A stretch of 64,000 bases of DNA from a phage. Made by a program: the position numbers and the translations under genes. Under the pieces are notes generated by a model. The model was not told where the DNA came from. It searched no databases and saw only the letters and a list, made by a program, of their open reading frames with translations. The DNA lies in sequence record PQ724393.1; one strand, given 5' to 3'. Below are positions 819 to 25,298 of the stretch, piece by piece. Each line of letters starts with the position of its first letter. The first letter of the stretch is position 1.

Positions 819-1022
819 TCAATTCAGGTTACGTTTAAAAAGGTCTGCTACTTCAAGGAGCTCGTCCTTAGTAGCGATGTCGTTGAGTATTTTATATCTG
901 ATTTCTTTAAAGCGTTCTTTAAAATCCTCAGCTGCATTGATATCAAAAAATCGTTGGATTAACCGGAATTCTTTATGGACGGCTTTATCGAACAAATCAA
1001 TATTCACTTTAAAGTTTGTCAT
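819..1022 (-). CDS. small protein, rIIA.1-like by position
   Basis: 67-aa ORF; SD GAGGTAG 7 nt upstream of ATG; sits between rIIA and gene 39 region. Confidence 0.5.
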
Positions 1023-1332
1023 TTTTAACTACCTCATGTTGAACATATTCTCTGGTAGAACCGAGTTCAGCCAGAATTCTTCTCATAGAACCCATTGTAC
1101 TTTTGTGCTCTCTGTGGCGATACAATATCTCCAGAACCTTTTCCTGGACAACAGGAGAGAGCGCCTGGTTATCTTTAATCTTTAAGGCAATAGATTTTAC
1201 AGCCTTAAGATATTCTAGCCCCTTACCGCTTGTAATCACTACTCCTTCATCTTTACAGTTACGAATAGCGGTTTCCATAAAGGATAAAGCCAGGTTGTCA
1301 GTGTTCACTATACTGTTATCTTGCATAATCAT
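1009..1332 (-). CDS. hypothetical protein (107 aa)
   Basis: Track ORF 1009..1359 starts at GTG inside promoter; in-frame ATG at 1332 has SD GAGGTGA. Confidence 0.5.
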   Translation of the reverse strand: MIMQDNSIVNTDNLALSFMETAIRNCKDEGVVITSGKGLEYLKAVKSIALKIKDNQALSPVVQEKVLEILYRHREHKSTMGSMRRILAELGSTREYVQHEVVKNDKL

Positions 1333-1345
1333 ATTCTCACCTCTA

Positions 1346-1379
1346 GATAATCCTATCACAGTTTTGTTATGTTGTAAAC
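1346..1379 (-). promoter_or_regulatory. putative early sigma70-type promoter
   Basis: Coding strand GTTTAC -35, ~17-nt spacer, weak -10 (TAGGAT); upstream of ORF 1009..1332. Confidence 0.4.
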
Positions 1380-1601: not shown

Positions 1602-3419
1602 TTACGACATCCAGGCCTTACGGAGTTGAGGGTCGTTCCCGAGGAGCATTTCGAACTGTTCTTTCCAATCTTCAGGCAATTGAACCACATCAAATTTAGG
1701 GTCTTGAATCATTCGACGGTATTCAGCCTTCTCAAGAGAACCTAAACCTTTAATATATCGAATAGAATGTTTTGGTAGAGAGTCCTTGGCTTTGGTATAA
1801 CTAGGAACATCATAAAACCATTCCTGTTCTTTACCAATCTGAGCAATAATCACCGGAGTTTTACAGAATCGTACTCGGCCTTGTTCGAATAATTCAGGCC
1901 ATTGGCTAAAGAAGGCTAGCAATGACGGATAAATCGAGCCTGTACCATCCACATCGGCATCAGTCATAATAGCGATATTACGATAGTTAGTTTTATCTGC
2001 AGGTTCGCCAATAACCAGTCCAGTGATTGCACAGATATCAAACAATTCTTTGTTCTTCATGATATCAACTGCAGGCATACCCCAGGTATTCATAACCTTA
2101 CCACGCAATGGATAACCGCCTTGAAGGTCTTTATTACGTACTTCAATGAAAGGACCCATTGCTGAATCACCTTCAGTCAAGAACAGAGTTGTATCGGCAT
2201 CTTTACCATACATATTGGCTTTAATATGCTTATGGACCTTAGCTTTCAAAGCTTTCTTAGCGGCTTTTGTTTCTGCTGCTTTTTCGGCTGCTAATTTACG
2301 TGCTAAAGCAGCTTCGACGATAGGCATAATCAACCCATCGACCTTAAGAATCATCGATGCAATTTTCTTAGCATCAATTTGGATATGGCTACGAATCTCG
2401 CCAAACGGGGAGGTCAAACGCTCTTTAGTCTGGGAATCAAAACGCATATTACTCATATCACGAATGAACATTACCATCGTAAGGCATTCTTTAACACGAG
2501 CCTTAGTTACTTCAATTCCACGATATTTCTTTTTAATACCAGGCAGAAGGTGCTCACAAATGTCATCGAATACACATTCAACGTGGTGGCCACCATTCTT
2601 GGTATGGATATTATTTACATACGTCAGTTGACGGAACCCATCCGGAGAAGGAGTAAATGCCATCGAAACATTATCAGTTTCTTGGATTACAAAGTCATCA
2701 CCAAATTGCTTAGCATACTTTTTAAAGTTGCCATCTACTTTTTTACCATTAAAAGTAAATTGAATATCAGGATAAATTACGGCCAGTGTTTGAAGACGGT
2801 CTAATGTAATATCCAGATAAATTTGGGTCAGGCTATTTTCTTCGAAATGGTTAAAGTCTGGGGTGAATATAACCGAAGTACCCTTACCTTTAGATTTCTT
2901 AGTAGTCCAACCTTTGTTTTCCATTCCGTTAGAACAGTTAACAGTAATCTCATTCTCGCCATCAGAGGTGATGCCTGTGAACAAAACAGAGAAGATATTA
3001 GTTAAACTACTACCGACACCATTCATGCCACCTGTCTTACGCTCTGAGTCATCTCCAAAGTTACCACCGGCCTTTGGAATAGTCCATGCAGCTACAGGAC
3101 CCGGAATTTGTTCGCCATTTTGGTCAGTAACCATTGCTTGTGGAATACCACGGCCATTATCGGAAACTGAAACCTGATTATTCTTAATTCGGACATCAAT
3201 TTTGTTTGCGAATTTAAAATTAGTACGAATAGCTTCATCGACAGAGTTATCAATGATTTCGTCAATTAATTTAACCAGTCCAGGAACATAGTTCACCTGG
3301 GTAAAATTACCAAACAGGAATCGACCGTGAGCTTCATTAGCACTTGAGCCAATATACATCCCACTACGTTTTTTGATATGTTCAATGTCGGACAGTACTT
3401 TAATTTCATTCTTAATCAT
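1602..3419 (-). CDS. 39: DNA topoisomerase II large (ATPase) subunit, gp39, single 605-aa ORF
   Basis: 605 aa; GHKL/GyrB-like N-terminus MIKNEIKVLSDIEHIKKRSGMYIGS; T4 gp39 position after rIIA; length equals unsplit 39+60 form. Confidence 0.95.
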   Translation of the reverse strand: MIKNEIKVLSDIEHIKKRSGMYIGSSANEAHGRFLFGNFTQVNYVPGLVKLIDEIIDNSVDEAIRTNFKFANKIDVRIKNNQVSVSDNGRGIPQAMVTDQNGEQIPGPVAAWTIPKAGGNFGDDSERKTGGMNGVGSSLTNIFSVLFTGITSDGENEITVNCSNGMENKGWTTKKSKGKGTSVIFTPDFNHFEENSLTQIYLDITLDRLQTLAVIYPDIQFTFNGKKVDGNFKKYAKQFGDDFVIQETDNVSMAFTPSPDGFRQLTYVNNIHTKNGGHHVECVFDDICEHLLPGIKKKYRGIEVTKARVKECLTMVMFIRDMSNMRFDSQTKERLTSPFGEIRSHIQIDAKKIASMILKVDGLIMPIVEAALARKLAAEKAAETKAAKKALKAKVHKHIKANMYGKDADTTLFLTEGDSAMGPFIEVRNKDLQGGYPLRGKVMNTWGMPAVDIMKNKELFDICAITGLVIGEPADKTNYRNIAIMTDADVDGTGSIYPSLLAFFSQWPELFEQGRVRFCKTPVIIAQIGKEQEWFYDVPSYTKAKDSLPKHSIRYIKGLGSLEKAEYRRMIQDPKFDVVQLPEDWKEQFEMLLGNDPQLRKAWMS

Positions 3420-3443
3420 GTTATTTCCTCATGTAGTAGGAGA

Positions 3444-3470
3444 ATATTATCCCATTTCACTTAAAGCATA
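3444..3470 (-). promoter_or_regulatory. putative MotA-box middle promoter upstream of gene 39
   Basis: Coding strand TATGCTTTA (MotA-box-like) then ~12 nt then TAATAT. Confidence 0.35.
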
Positions 3471-3488
3471 AAAGGGCCGAAGCCCTTA
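3471..3488 (-). terminator. putative rho-independent terminator
   Basis: AAGGGCTTCGGCCCTT hairpin (UUCG loop) then TTTAT; overlaps lipoprotein stop. Confidence 0.5.
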
Positions 3489-3746
3489 ATCAAATCGAAT
3501 GGTCGACTTTTTAAAGAATAACCCAGAACAAACTGTTCCTTCAACCCTTTTACCTGTCGGCCCTACAGCAATAAAGCCTGTACGCTGGAAATCATCTTCA
3601 GAACAGCCGAATAAGTTGTATCCTGTGATTTGGATTTGTTCGTAGCCATTTGCATCCAATACACGGGTAGCATTATCGGCATCAGTACAACCAACCAACG
3701 AAACTGCTAGTACAAGAGCCGCAATAGAACGATTAACATATTTCAT
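3486..3746 (-). CDS. putative lipoprotein (86 aa)
   Basis: N-terminal signal peptide with lipobox LVGC; terminator hairpin overlaps stop. Confidence 0.6.
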   Translation of the reverse strand: MKYVNRSIAALVLAVSLVGCTDADNATRVLDANGYEQIQITGYNLFGCSEDDFQRTGFIAVGPTGKRVEGTVCSGLFFKKSTIRFD

Positions 3747-3752
3747 AATTTC

Positions 3753-3929
3753 TCACTTAGTTAGCAGGTCATAGAACCCGCCGTTAACATGTTTAGGAGC
3801 TGAAACTAACCGAACAGCCAGCCGATGGCAATCAGGGCAAACATCATTATCTCTTTCAGAGATTTTCTTGATTTTTTCGTATTCTTTTGCACAGTCTTCG
3901 GATTGGCATTTGTAATCATAAAGTGGCAT
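3753..3929 (-). CDS. FmdB-family zinc-ribbon protein (58 aa)
   Basis: Not in ORF track (<60 aa). Own translation MPLYDYKCQSEDCAKEYEKIKKISERDNDVCPDCHRLAVRL...; MPxYxYxC...CPxC signature; SD AAGGAA. Confidence 0.5.
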   Translation of the reverse strand: MPLYDYKCQSEDCAKEYEKIKKISERDNDVCPDCHRLAVRLVSAPKHVNGGFYDLLTK

Positions 3930-18997: not shown

Positions 18998-19311
18998 CTC
19001 TTAGATTTAATTTTATCCAGTTCTTCTTGTATTTGCATTGTAACACATTTTTCTACATGAAGCGCTAGCTCTTCTTTTCGGTCTTCGGAAGGTGTTCCGA
19101 AATCAACCGACACTTTTCCATCTTTCTCAATAACAATATTCATCACATAAACGATGTGAGCAGTGCCATCGGGTAAAGTAAGCATAATTTCCTGCTTAAC
19201 CGAACCCATTGACTTACGGATTATATCTAATGATTTCTCATAATAACGAGGGTCACTAGGACCCTCTTCGGTATCTTTAACAAAATTATCTAAATCAGAT
19301 AAATCAGTCAT
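18982..19311 (-). CDS. 40: gp40-like protein (head vertex assembly chaperone position)
   Basis: 109 aa between uvsX and 41 as in T4. Confidence 0.6.
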   Translation of the reverse strand: MTDLSDLDNFVKDTEEGPSDPRYYEKSLDIIRKSMGSVKQEIMLTLPDGTAHIVYVMNIVIEKDGKVSVDFGTPSEDRKEELALHVEKCVTMQIQEELDKIKSKRWWKW

Positions 19312-20485
19312 GGTCGCTCACAAAATTCATATTTTCTAAATCGTTTTCTATATCAGCGGCGCTTTGGGTATTTCCACCTAATTTAACAGCAACGTTCTTA
19401 GAGACACGAGAGTTAATAAGGTCGTTCACCGCATCGTCAACTTCTTTAATAGAATTAATTGCACCGAGCTTATACTTATTCTCGATTGCTTCACGGAACG
19501 GAGCATGTTTAAACAGCGGTCCCCAGAACTCGACACAATCGGTAGCTTTAGCACGCCATGATTTTTCTTCTTGAACCATTTCACCTGTGGTTTCGTCAAG
19601 GAATGCACGATTATACCAACCAGCTTTAGGTTTCACAACAAAGCCAATATCAGTAGCCATTTCAAGCAATCCACTGAATGGGTCGATACCACCTTCAAAG
19701 TTCACAGTAATTGGGAACGTTGATTTCTCTTTAACAGTACGAGATTTTTCGGCCTTCAGGGTGAAGTCATAACCAGTGAGCTCGGTGCCATCTTTAACCT
19801 GACGTTTAGAGATAAAGAATACGGTAGAAGCAGAGTACAGAATACCGGTACCGCCACCCATAATCTCTTTAGGATACATTCCACCAATTTCCATAGCCGT
19901 ATGGTTAATTGCTACACAAGGGATATCCTTGATGGTCAGATAAGGTGTTACGATACGGAACAGAGATTTCAGTGACTTAGCACGGGTCATATCACCTACA
20001 ACTTTCTCGTTCAAAGCATCTTCGGTTTCTTTCTTAGAAGCGGTGTTACCGATGGAGTCGATAAAGATAATAACCTTTTCACCACGAGTAATTTCTTCTA
20101 ATTGGTTGGTCATGTCAACCTTCAGTTGTTCAACTGACTGGATTGGCGTATGAACCACACGTTCCAGGTCAACACCCATTGAACGGAAATAAGATTCTGA
20201 AGCACCGAACTCAGAGTCATAGAACAAGCAAATTGCGTCTGGATATTTCTTCATATATGCCGCAACCATAGTTAATCCAAACAACGTTTTAAAGTGTTTA
20301 GACGGCGCAGCAAAGATTGTCAAACCTGATTGTAAGCCTGCATTCAACGCACCACCCAATGCAATATTAAGCATAGGAATACGAGTAGGAACTTCGTCAC
20401 GACCATTAAACAATTTAGATTTGGTCAGGTCGGCAGTCATTTTAGAAGTAGAAGCTTTAATCAAACGGGATTTTAAATCAGACAT
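19304..20485 (-). CDS. uvsX: UvsX RecA-like recombinase
   Basis: 393 aa; MSDLKSRLIKASTSK N-terminus and RecA core match recalled T4 UvsX. Confidence 0.93.
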   Translation of the reverse strand: MSDLKSRLIKASTSKMTADLTKSKLFNGRDEVPTRIPMLNIALGGALNAGLQSGLTIFAAPSKHFKTLFGLTMVAAYMKKYPDAICLFYDSEFGASESYFRSMGVDLERVVHTPIQSVEQLKVDMTNQLEEITRGEKVIIFIDSIGNTASKKETEDALNEKVVGDMTRAKSLKSLFRIVTPYLTIKDIPCVAINHTAMEIGGMYPKEIMGGGTGILYSASTVFFISKRQVKDGTELTGYDFTLKAEKSRTVKEKSTFPITVNFEGGIDPFSGLLEMATDIGFVVKPKAGWYNRAFLDETTGEMVQEEKSWRAKATDCVEFWGPLFKHAPFREAIENKYKLGAINSIKEVDDAVNDLINSRVSKNVAVKLGGNTQSAADIENDLENMNFVSDHD

Positions 20486-20537
20486 TATATTTTTCCATAG
20501 GCATCATTATATTTTACTCACGTTTTAAGATAGGGTA

Positions 20538-20546
20538 ATTATATCA
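20538..20546 (-). promoter_or_regulatory. putative extended -10 promoter upstream of uvsX
   Basis: Coding strand TGATATAAT about 50 nt upstream of uvsX ATG; no clear -35. Confidence 0.3.
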
Positions 20547-20562
20547 CTTCACATTTACAGCG

Positions 20563-21456
20563 TTAAAGGACCACGTCCTCATAACTTGGCATTTCGTGCC
20601 CAGAATGGATATGGGCACCGAAATAAATGAATTCAGCCAGACCAGGATGGAATACTAAACCTGGGTTCTCATGATAAATGATATGCGGTCTTGATTTCAG
20701 AATCTGATAATACTCAACCTTACTCGGTTTGAATTTAACAATCTCTACATCAGGACGATAGTCTTCACGCTTAAATGAATCATTAGGGTTGGTGATATAA
20801 AGACGAGCACCTTCAGCCGCAGCTTGGTCTACAACTCTTTCGAATTGATAGCACTTATCCGAAATACGGAATGGATGGAAAATACCATCAATTTTAATAG
20901 GCGCTAGACCTTCAGAGTAACGCTCAATTACTGCAGGATTAATTACCTTTTGGTCTACAAAAATCTTATCAGAGGATGCACCTCGTGACACCAGGACGTC
21001 TTTCTGGCATTGATTCAGGACTGTAGTATAAAGTGAACGTTCAACTGAAGCCACATCAATATCAATGAACTCGTCGATATAATAACGAGGAACTTCAGGG
21101 TCCATTGTGATATTAAAGTTGAATTGTACAGTATGAGCACCATCATAACCTGTGATATCGGTTACCAGTCCTGAGCAATCATAGTATTCGATTAGTGAAT
21201 CGACTACAAACTCATTTTCAGACCAGAAATGTTTACGGGTTTCATAAGCATTTTCTTTATACCAAAGTGGTACGAAATTCAGTTCTGGGAATAATTCAAT
21301 GCATTCTTTGATATCGCTCGAATTTCTAGGATAAGCCAGATAATCACCTGGACGAGCACGATTTAAATGGAGTTGAAAATTGCCGTCCTTAAGGACGGCA
21401 TATTCACCTGTTTCGTAACTACGCATACTGAAAATAGGAACGATAAACAAACTCAT
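20563..21456 (-). CDS. hypothetical protein (297 aa) in beta-glucosyltransferase slot
   Basis: No similarity to recalled T4 beta-gt; ATGA-coupled to gene 42 stop. Confidence 0.6.
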   Translation of the reverse strand: MSLFIVPIFSMRSYETGEYAVLKDGNFQLHLNRARPGDYLAYPRNSSDIKECIELFPELNFVPLWYKENAYETRKHFWSENEFVVDSLIEYYDCSGLVTDITGYDGAHTVQFNFNITMDPEVPRYYIDEFIDIDVASVERSLYTTVLNQCQKDVLVSRGASSDKIFVDQKVINPAVIERYSEGLAPIKIDGIFHPFRISDKCYQFERVVDQAAAEGARLYITNPNDSFKREDYRPDVEIVKFKPSKVEYYQILKSRPHIIYHENPGLVFHPGLAEFIYFGAHIHSGHEMPSYEDVVL

Positions 21457-22151
21457 TTCAGGAAACCTCGGACGTAGTCAAAATCACGTTCAAACACGTG
21501 TGCACTTACCATGGTGTGGGAATACGTACCTAAACCAACACCACACTGTTCAGCAATAAATGCCATCAGTTTACCCTGCAGATAGAAATCCAGCTGCATA
21601 ACAACAGCGCAGTTTTGTGAACGCATATGGGTGTGTGCATACAAACGCCCGTCACGAATATAATACGTTACCGAATCGGTGCAAGGGTATTCTAAGGATT
21701 CGTCAGAATCAAGGAGGGCTTGGTCTTGTTCTTGGAGAATCTGGAACACAACTCTTCGCGAGTTGGCCTTTTCTTTAAGCTCTTTAAGTAGGGCTGGGAG
21801 TTGGGCCGCAATTCGAGGTCCATAGAAAGTGTTGAAGTTTGCAGGCAATACGTCACTTTTCGGCTTATCAATGAACTTAGCAACATTAGGGTATTCCTTA
21901 AATGCTTCGGCAGCGTCAGTACCACCAGAAATCATAAATTTCCAAAAGGATTCGGCATATTCATAACTGATACGATTGATACGTGGGTCGGTGAATTTAT
22001 AGGTGCTGACATCCAGTACTTCTATAGAAGCAGAACCAATTTCATAACAACGTCCGATACGAGAATCAACTGCAAACTGTGGAGCTTCCAGGATTTCTTC
22101 GTTCATTTGTTTAAATGCATTTTCAAAACTAACAGCGGTAATGTGTTTCAT
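21453..22151 (-). CDS. 42: dCMP hydroxymethylase-like enzyme (thymidylate synthase fold), gp42 position
   Basis: 232 aa; EYPCTDSVTYYIRD...HMRSQN resembles T4 gp42 FMCTNTVQYLIRD...MRSND; divergent. Confidence 0.7.
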   Translation of the reverse strand: MKHITAVSFENAFKQMNEEILEAPQFAVDSRIGRCYEIGSASIEVLDVSTYKFTDPRINRISYEYAESFWKFMISGGTDAAEAFKEYPNVAKFIDKPKSDVLPANFNTFYGPRIAAQLPALLKELKEKANSRRVVFQILQEQDQALLDSDESLEYPCTDSVTYYIRDGRLYAHTHMRSQNCAVVMQLDFYLQGKLMAFIAEQCGVGLGTYSHTMVSAHVFERDFDYVRGFLK

Positions 22152-24797: not shown

Positions 24798-25298
24798 TTA
24801 AATCTTATCTTTACCGATTTCAATACACCGTTCTATTGCCGCCGGTACTTTGGTCTTGAGCTTATTGATTTGTTTCTTATAATCACGGGCTTTATCGAAG
24901 CTCTCGGTTTCGAGCATTTCGTAATAACGAGCCTCGTGGATGGAAATCTGTAGATTGATATGGTTTACGCACATCGCATACAGTTTCTGCTTTTTGTACA
25001 AATCATCTTGACGCTTCATTTCTGCCTGGTGTTTGGCTAGTACCGCTTCACGCTTAGACTCTTGTTCACGTTGGAATTCGATTTCCCTTTGAGCATATTT
25101 TGCACAGTTATTACCGCATTGATTATTAGCTCGGGTATACACAAGCCCAGAACCAGCACGGAATTTCATTTCACCGTCATATTGTTTCTGTTCAGCTGCG
25201 ATACGAGCTTTACCAACTTCATCAGCCGAAACTGCATCGCCATATTGGACCGCGCAACCTGATAGGAGCATACTCATTGCGATAATTAACTTTTTCAT
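24798..25298 (-). CDS. putative lipoprotein (166 aa)
   Basis: Signal peptide with lipobox LLSGC; SD AAGGGAA. Confidence 0.6.
   Translation of the reverse strand: MKKLIIAMSMLLSGCAVQYGDAVSADEVGKARIAAEQKQYDGEMKFRAGSGLVYTRANNQCGNNCAKYAQREIEFQREQESKREAVLAKHQAEMKRQDDLYKKQKLYAMCVNHINLQISIHEARYYEMLETESFDKARDYKKQINKLKTKVPAAIERCIEIGKDKI

Follow-up and report, generated by a model that had tools for sequence, protein, structure and literature searches.

A candidate base-proximal glycosyltransferase gene next to a 5-hydroxy-dCMP synthase-type gene in a Dhakavirus

Gene organisation at the ORF297 locus

The 64,000-nucleotide (nt) stretch of phage DNA analysed here (sequence record PQ724393.1; the window) carries an open reading frame (ORF) of 297 amino acids (aa), ORF297, which we describe as a candidate glycosyltransferase gene of a DNA hypermodification pathway. 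The window shares 93-96% DNA identity with coliphage JS10, genus Dhakavirus, and its source is a Dhakavirus of the JS10/JS98 type. Full-length homologs in 353 phage records, a match to PHROG 3891 ('unknown function'; E 9e-158 across residues 1-296) and an AlphaFold2 model with a predicted local distance difference test (pLDDT) score of 95.4 establish that ORF297 is a real gene. It is the last gene of a minus-strand block of five, whose successive junctions overlap by 16, 4, 4 and 4 nt (Table 1).

Table 1. Positions in the window of ORF297, its neighbours and its start signals
Feature	Position	Strand	Remarks
NTP-transferase + APH-type kinase (NTK), 567 aa	23064..24767	-	homolog of AfhE and RB69 gp53:52
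HAD-type phosphatase, 132 aa	22681..23079	-	homolog of RB69 gp51 and HY126 AfhF
P-loop thymidylate-kinase-like (Tmk-like) kinase, 178 aa	22148..22684	-	GTG start; GTGA overlap with the HAD gene
ThyA-family enzyme, putative 5-hydroxy-dCMP synthase type, 232 aa	21453..22151	-	homology and residue signature
GAGG Shine-Dalgarno, 9 nt before the ORF297 ATG, within the end of the upstream gene	21466..21469	-	sequence reading
ATGA overlap of the ThyA-family stop and the ORF297 start	21453..21456	-	plus strand reads 'tcat'
ORF297, 297 aa	20563..21456	-	ATG start (ORF listing)
uvsX	19304..20485		after ORF297, 77-nt gap; Pfam T4_UVSX_C, E 1.4e-36

The initial annotation had given this ORF with exactly the same ends, to which we add the strand, and had noted an overlap with the upstream gene. 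The overlap is evident in the sequence, where the ATG of ORF297 (21456-21454) shares bases with the TGA stop (21455-21453) of the 232-aa ORF, an arrangement that would couple translation of the two genes. A tight junction between the hydroxylase and transferase genes is kept in 8 related phage loci, reading ATGA in JS10 and TAATG in RB69, NRG-P0074, HY126, LC53 and Thanatos, with a 3-nt gap in DLP2. The T4 gene order is 42, b-gt, segA, uvsX. Since uvsX comes next after ORF297, ORF297 sits in the positional slot of the T4 beta-glucosyltransferase (beta-gt), between a ThyA-family gene and uvsX, as had been claimed. The spacer between ORF297 and uvsX (20486-20566) contains a promoter-like TTAACG-17-TATAAT with an upstream TG on the minus strand (20566..20538), and JS10 has ~125 extra nt here that are absent from the window. 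A scan for promoters and terminators gave no enrichment over shuffled sequences and no interpretable internal signal in the five-gene block.

The upstream gene had initially been called gene 42, the T4 gene for deoxycytidine monophosphate (dCMP) hydroxymethylase. Its product instead shares 80% identity with RB69 gp48, whereas its identity with T4 gp42 is only 24.5%, across 159 aa. In the Protein Data Bank (PDB), it matched 9iqu, 9iqc and 9ir2 at E ~1e-125, compared to 2.8e-4 for T4 dCMP hydroxymethylase (1b49). Alignment in E. coli ThyA numbering revealed that the catalytic Cys146 and the cytosine-specifying N177D are kept, and that position 169 is N, as in RB69, LC53, DLP2 and Thanatos, whereas it is D in T4 gp42. 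D169N is the published signature of 5-hydroxy-dCMP synthase activity, and RB69 gp48 and DLP3 gp80 were shown to be flavin-associated 5-hydroxy-dCMP synthases (PMC13326640). In RB69 and DLP3 DNA, arabinose is ether-linked straight to the cytosine C5-O, without a hydroxymethyl group (PMC13326640). On the identity to T4 gp42, N169 and the best PDB matches (9iqu/9iqc), a dCMP hydroxymethylase was rejected; judged by its sequence, the gene is a positional and homologous counterpart of gene 42 and not a functional gene 42. A ThyA-family gene with D169N followed by an ORF297-type gene reliably marks a T4-like phage as other than a 5-hydroxymethylcytosine (hmC) phage. Several of the related GenBank records listed call the ThyA-family gene thymidylate synthase or dCMP hydroxymethylase.

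The three remaining genes of the block resemble nucleotide-sugar and nucleotide kinase genes of arabinosylating phages. The NTK has NTP_transferase (3e-8) and APH (8e-6) Pfam domains and is 41-44% identical to its RB69 counterpart, and the HAD phosphatase is 62% identical to RB69 gp51 and matches PDB 9iqw at E 2.8e-54. According to the account of He et al. 2026 given in PMC13326640, HY126 AfhE is a sugar kinase and UDP-arabinose pyrophosphorylase, AfhF converts arabinofuranose (Araf)-1,5-bisphosphate to Araf-1-phosphate, and the two together convert arabinose 5-phosphate to UDP-arabinofuranose. The Tmk-like kinase matches PHROG 761 (E 5.5e-40) and is 38% identical to RB69 gp45. Its gene lies between the HAD and hydroxylase genes, upstream of the latter, whereas in RB69, DLP3, HY126, LC53, DLP2 and Thanatos it comes after the transferase gene.

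Family membership and fold of ORF297

ORF297 is 67% identical to the RB69 transferase, 50% to the DLP2 homolog and 51% to Thanatos TH1_063 (E 1e-97). In the RB69 reference, ORFs 47 and 46 are one gene divided by a sequencing error (Lee et al. NAR 2026, PMC13326640). ORF297 is intact, and is the uninterrupted counterpart of RB69 gp47 (70% identity) plus gp46 (63%) and an ortholog of DLP3 gp79 and TH1_063. RB69 gp46:47, DLP3 gp79 and HY126 XAN60474 are the 'arabinosyltransferase 1' of the arabinosyl-5-hydroxycytosine pathway, of which the RB69 and DLP3 proteins were modelled and proposed to be the initiating transferase (PMC13326640). ORF297 belongs to this phage family by full-length homology and by its position directly downstream of a D169N-type ThyA homolog, with the ATGA overlap and N169. 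Of the genes for nucleoside diphosphate (NDP)-arabinose, the NTK and HAD genes co-occur with ORF297, the window lacks the isomerase gene, and the NTK falls in a divergent clade. TH1_063 (300 aa) likewise follows a ThyA homolog, TH1_062, and is the sole transferase-like gene in a phage with one pentose per cytosine; it differs in that UDP-xylose pyrophosphorylase activity was reported for it in vitro and no transfer was detected (PMC12838424). Among the records listed, members of the family are mostly annotated 'hypothetical protein' and in some cases misannotated; the LC53 ortholog is labelled 'putative RNA polymerase binding protein' (locus L006, 7001-7912).

The AlphaFold2 model of ORF297 is a compact GT-B structure with two Rossmann-like beta/alpha/beta domains and an inter-domain cleft. 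A fold search had been proposed with the initial annotation, and both structural comparison and Foldseek returned GT-B enzymes throughout. The structural neighbours were sucrose-phosphate synthase 6kih (score 17.9), BshA 6n1x (17.0), PimA 2gej (16.2), the HY126 phage transferase 9iqz (14.1) and T4 alpha-GT 1y6f (13.4). In the model, the N-domain (residues ~1-185) would form the acceptor side and the C-domain (residues ~186-297) the donor side, and it is this C-domain of only ~110 residues that makes ORF297 short. Residues invariant even in relatives of 30-40% identity are SMRS 10-13, D24-G25-N26, Y66, R74 and R124 in the N-domain, and F193-x-P-F-R197-x-S-D200, T222-x-P-N225, K246, H270 and E275 in the C-domain. 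Donor and acceptor roles are suggested for them by the usual GT-B layout, not by a structural superposition.

The top Foldseek matches were non-hydrolysing UDP-N-acetylglucosamine (UDP-GlcNAc) 2-epimerases (7vza, E 3.4e-6; 1f6d). This would suit a GT-B enzyme that modifies or hydrolyses a nucleotide sugar, for example one resembling a UDP-sugar 2-epimerase, with no transfer to a base. The sequence H270-x-G-x-x-E275 also appears to resemble the S-G-G-x-x-E-E motif of the UDP-GlcNAc 2-epimerases. We consider an epimerase-like or hydrolysing function of ORF297 very unlikely.

The initial annotation saw no resemblance between ORF297 and T4 beta-gt, and neither blastp nor alignment of the family profile with hhalign (probability 0.1%) detected any. 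As a control, the genuine beta-gt of phage VP8 matched PF09198 at 1.8e-92, while ORF297 and its VP8 relative matched nothing. T4 beta-gt (PF09198, GT-B, inverting) shares with ORF297 the slot, the fold class and, as predicted for ORF297, the transfer of a sugar to the C5 hydroxyl of a modified cytosine. It is longer (351 aa) and basic (pI 9.05) compared to the acidic ORF297 (pI 5.0), whole-protein pI being a poor test of DNA binding because transferases of the RB69 gp3 type, which act on DNA, are also mildly acidic. Its acceptor carries 5-CH2OH and not 5-OH, and its donor is host UDP-glucose, whereas that of ORF297 would be made by the phage.

The retaining GT4-type enzymes (6kih, 6n1x, PimA 2gej and MshA 3c4q) are 7-11% identical to ORF297. 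Unlike them, ORF297 has no Glycos_transf_1 (PF00534) profile match, has H-x4-E for E-x7-E, a short donor domain and an SMRS loop in place of the glycine-rich loop, and so falls outside CAZy GT4. The base-proximal arabinose linkage is alpha (PMC13326640), which retaining GT4-type neighbours would fit, with the limit that fold alone does not fix stereochemistry. The gp3-type enzymes (RB69 gp3, the HY126 glycosyltransferase of PDB 9iqz and 9ir0, Bas46 Aat, and DLP3 gp76 and gp77) are classical GT4-like arabinosyltransferases of 366 aa for the second and third steps. They have no sequence similarity to ORF297, and hhalign of the family profile with RB69 gp3 found no relationship (probability 0.2%). 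A PDB sequence search with a 53-sequence family profile returned only noise (E >= 0.098).

Distribution of the family and its domain fusions

The gp3-type transferases, whose substrate is DNA that already bears arabinose, are confined to phages with two or three arabinoses and are absent from the Dhakavirus lineage. We found the RB69-gp3-type transferase in 212 records, all of them Mosigvirus-type coliphages (>=95% identity) or Acinetobacter phages with two copies each, and none of them a Dhakavirus, Serratia or Shewanella phage. In contrast, the ORF297 family is present as one copy per locus wherever the hydroxylase is present in the loci compared. LC53 DNA contains mono-arabinosyl-5-hydroxycytosine and Bas46 DNA the di-arabinosyl form (bioRxiv 2025.12.19.695335). 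Thanatos DNA has one pentose per cytosine, RB69 DNA up to two arabinoses and DLP3 DNA up to three (PMC13326640), and NP DNA up to two. Together, the sugar counts and the distribution suggest that the copy number of gp3-type genes equals the number of sugars minus one. No second transferase of the kinds sought (RB69 gp3, DLP2 047/048, TAGT, beta-gt or GT47-like) was found in the window, which predicts one sugar per cytosine. Where RB69 has gp3, between rIIA.1 and topoisomerase gene 39, the window has only a 116-aa DUF7367 protein (1009-1359, minus strand).

Synteny was compared across T4-like loci, as the initial annotation had advised, and the linkage of the ORF297 family to the base-modifying enzyme was conserved. 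The linkage extends to members of 35-40% identity on contigs of 356 kb and 383 kb, where a ThyA homolog with N169, the transferase and a Tmk-like kinase stand together. On the 383-kb contig, the second gene upstream of this triad encodes a Flavodoxin_2 (flavin reductase-like) protein (locus L010, 4426-7576), in keeping with the flavin dependence published for the hydroxylase.

Domain fusions link the family to other components of the pathway. Among the 150 best representatives of the profile search, we counted seven transferase-kinase fusions and one kinase-transferase fusion, all metagenomic (P0191, P0193, P0195, P0209, P0215, P0221, P0180 and P0192). With phmmer, the fused kinase domains could not be linked to the window kinase; profile-profile comparison with hhalign did link them to the window-type kinase family (probability 96%, E 3.6e-9). 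Eight further fusions join a KdsC-like HAD domain to the transferase (P0108, P0123, P0125, P0147, P0148, P0133, P0194 and P0169), and one (P0229) joins the transferase to an arabinose-5-phosphate isomerase (SIS) domain with E 8.7e-19 to RB69 gp55. These fusions tie the ORF297 family to each other pathway component, including the arabinose branch. The locus with the isomerase fusion (L016, 1-13782, and L017) also encodes a dUTPase, a KdsA-like DAHP_synth_1 protein (resembling the synthase of 3-deoxy-D-manno-octulosonic acid (Kdo) 8-phosphate), a chorismate-mutase-like protein, a dCMP deaminase, a 549-aa protein, a Tmk-like kinase and a U32-like protein. As pure speculation, the KdsA-like gene and the KdsC-like HAD fusions could mean a Kdo-type sugar in some lineages.

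A more distant relative of ORF297 (308 aa, 23% identical) is encoded by Cronobacter phage VP8, a Muldoonvirus (locus L014, 3215-6925). Its gene lies between a gp42-type hydroxymethylase gene (60% identity to T4 gp42, D169) and TAGT plus beta-gt, and no kinase gene is adjacent. This context suggests that the broader family is one of 'ThyA-adjacent' transferases and is not limited to 5-hydroxycytosine (5hoC) phages. The VP8 relative might be the missing first (alpha-gt-like) transferase of the hmC phages among the Muldoonviruses.

Predicted function, acceptor and sugar

ORF297 is likely to be the base-proximal ('first') glycosyltransferase of a glycosyl-5-hydroxycytosine DNA hypermodification, and by analogy with characterised phages the first sugar is probably arabinose. 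Gene structure, orthology, fold, operon, comparative distribution and fusions point to this function, of which catalytic activity, donor identity and acceptor state are the predicted parts. The pathway was published in 2025-26, and the gene family, its position, fold and proposed role are already known as a published prediction (PMC13326640, 2026). The initial annotation had proposed ORF297 as the best candidate for a DNA sugar transferase, expressed together with the base-modification enzyme. In kind this stands, given the GT-B fold, the orthology to 'arabinosyltransferase 1', the conserved linkage and the finding of no further glycosyltransferase type in the window; the hmC detail does not. 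Since the partner is a 5-hydroxy-dCMP synthase-type enzyme, the acceptor would be 5hoC, and the hmC DNA proposed earlier for a transfer assay would be the wrong substrate. The sugar would probably be arabinofuranose made by the upstream genes, and not glucose from host UDP-glucose.

In the proposed pathway, the ThyA-family enzyme would hydroxylate dCMP at C5, an activity shown for its RB69 ortholog, and the NTK and HAD phosphatase would make an NDP-pentose, as described for their HY126 homologs. The small C-terminal Rossmann domain of ORF297 would bind the NDP-sugar, with R197, K201, T222-N225, K246, H270 and E275 as likely contacts. The larger, highly conserved N-terminal domain would hold the 5hoC, and the sugar would pass to the 5-OH to give 5-O-glycosyl-cytosine. 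With no gp3-type second transferase to extend it, this sugar would remain single. The key, committing step in the glycosylation of the hydroxylated base would fall to the ORF297 family.

Several results weigh against a first glycosyltransferase. The Pfam scan assigned ORF297 to no family at E <= 0.1, and an exhaustive profile search of 1.84 billion protein representatives returned only 239 clusters and did not reach the canonical GT4/GT1 families. An invariant V-x-H270-x4-E275 motif stands where GT4 enzymes have E-x7-E. The literature consulted contained no demonstrated activity for a member of the family, and within it the papers that cite He et al. 2026 or Mahler et al. 2025 offered no details about this enzyme. 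When supplied with UDP-Araf or UDP-arabinopyranose (UDP-Arap), single purified transferases of DLP3 failed to arabinosylate 5hoC-DNA (PMC13326640). Thanatos TH1_063 produced UDP-xylose from UTP and xylose-1-phosphate, and modified neither DNA, dCMP nor dCTP (PMC12838424).

The TH1_063 result would make ORF297 an NDP-pentose pyrophosphorylase (sugar-1-phosphate uridylyltransferase). The two proteins are genuinely homologous, and the UDP-xylose formed with the His-tagged protein was detected by liquid chromatography-tandem mass spectrometry (PMC12838424). However, the fold is GT-B and not that of a nucleotidyltransferase, and ORF297 has no NTP_transferase match. The operon already has that domain in the 567-aa neighbour, whose HY126 homolog is the published UDP-arabinose pyrophosphorylase in the account of He et al. 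2026 cited above. The control described for TH1_063 was a reaction with no enzyme, and a co-purified host uridylyltransferase could have contributed. Mono-glycosylated LC53 and Thanatos would, moreover, be left with no transferase. The GT-B fold, the dedicated pyrophosphorylase domain and the absence of another Thanatos transferase make the assignment unlikely for TH1_063, and we regard it as extremely unlikely for ORF297.

If ORF297 is the first transferase, we lean towards 5hoC in phage DNA as the acceptor, following the T4 paradigm, over 5-hydroxy-dCMP before incorporation. In the nucleotide route, ORF297 would glycosylate free 5-hydroxy-dCMP, the Tmk-like kinase would phosphorylate the glycosylated deoxynucleoside monophosphate (dNMP) and the polymerase would insert it. 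This is a variant of the first-transferase function and its probability is counted within that function; we hold it to be possible, if less probable than not. The polymerase would then receive a base already bearing its sugar, and we know of no earlier case of pre-replicative glycosylation of a phage DNA base, so that this would be the first. In favour of such a route, host glycosylases excise 5hoC from DNA as a mutagenic oxidative lesion. All 5hoC loci examined have the Tmk-like kinase gene beside that of the transferase, and at least 8 representative clusters contain fusions of the two, with either domain first. Fusions also occur with HAD and isomerase domains, however, which are not sequential partners, so the fusions indicate a shared pathway and not substrate channelling. 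The acceptor domain of ORF297 is strongly acidic, with a net charge of -13 compared to a family median of -6, +3 for T4 beta-gt and -2 to +2 for the DNA-acting gp3-type enzymes; charge at the domain level is more distinctive than pI, but overall charge predicts DNA binding only weakly. The invariant R12, R74 and R124 could hold a phosphate.

Published data bear on both acceptors. The gp1-type dNMP kinase already converts 5-hydroxy-dCMP (5hodCMP) to 5hodCDP, leaving the Tmk-like kinase without an assigned substrate, and single transferases were inactive on 5hoC-DNA (PMC13326640). On the other hand, the ThyA homolog and the gp1-type kinase together place 5-hydroxydeoxycytidine (5hodC) in E. coli DNA, and later arabinosylations act on DNA, DLP3 gp76 and gp77 doing so on RB69 DNA (PMC13326640). 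All phage DNA glycosylations characterised so far are post-replicative, and no kinase gene adjoins that of the distant homolog in hmC-type Muldoonviruses. Lee et al. state that their own data do not separate a mononucleotide from a DNA acceptor (PMC13326640).

Two features speak against arabinose as the sugar. Arabinose-5-phosphate isomerase is absent from the window and the Dhakavirus lineage, and the Dhakavirus NTK is 42-44% identical to the copies of Mosigvirus, LC53 (Winklervirus), DLP2 (Acinetobacter) and Thanatos (Shewanella), which are 53-72% identical among themselves. With the isomerase missing and the NTK this far from characterised ones, 'arabinose' is an extrapolation here. The isomerase is also absent from Klebsiella and Proteus phages of the same NTK clade, to which Klebsiella PWKp16 (80%) and Proteus SJ_PmiM (71%) belong. 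The Dhakavirus Tmk-like kinase, too, is only 38-44% identical to those of other lineages, themselves 40-68% alike. Compared to RB69, DLP3 and HY126, the window thus has divergent NTK and kinase genes and lacks the isomerase, the U32-like gene and the gp3-type transferase. A chorismate-mutase-like gene is also missing from the Dhakavirus cluster, which on its gene content is a minimal version and may represent a variant that uses another precursor or sugar.

ORF297 could on these grounds be a genuine base-proximal transferase that in the Dhakavirus lineage attaches a sugar other than D-arabinofuranose, and our literature search found no chemical analysis of Dhakavirus DNA. We consider another sugar unlikely. 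The host makes arabinose 5-phosphate for Kdo synthesis, and Thanatos DNA has its pentose although that phage, too, is without the isomerase. The identities to RB69 of the transferase, HAD phosphatase and hydroxylase (67%, 62% and 80%) reflect ordinary phylogenetic distance, and Dhakaviruses have been placed among the lineages with a syntenic arabinosylation cluster (PMC13326640).

Glycosylated 5hoC, the predicted product of the first transferase, shields phage DNA from type II restriction, DNA glycosylases and some CRISPR systems and exposes it to type IV enzymes, which is relevant to the choice and engineering of therapeutic T4-like phages.

A 166-aa ORF (24798-25298, minus strand) that separates the sugar-activation gene from the DNA polymerase region was considered as a replacement for the isomerase and rejected. 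Its product is no sugar enzyme but a predicted lipoprotein with a signal peptide and an LLSGC lipobox (MKKLIIAMSMLLSGC...), matches PHROG 1754 and is homologous to a protein with a signal peptide that LC53 encodes at the corresponding position. In NRG-P0074 (locus L001), the NTK is mislabelled 'dCMP deaminase' (1017-2702) and the HAD phosphatase 'phosphoheptose isomerase' (3414-3788).

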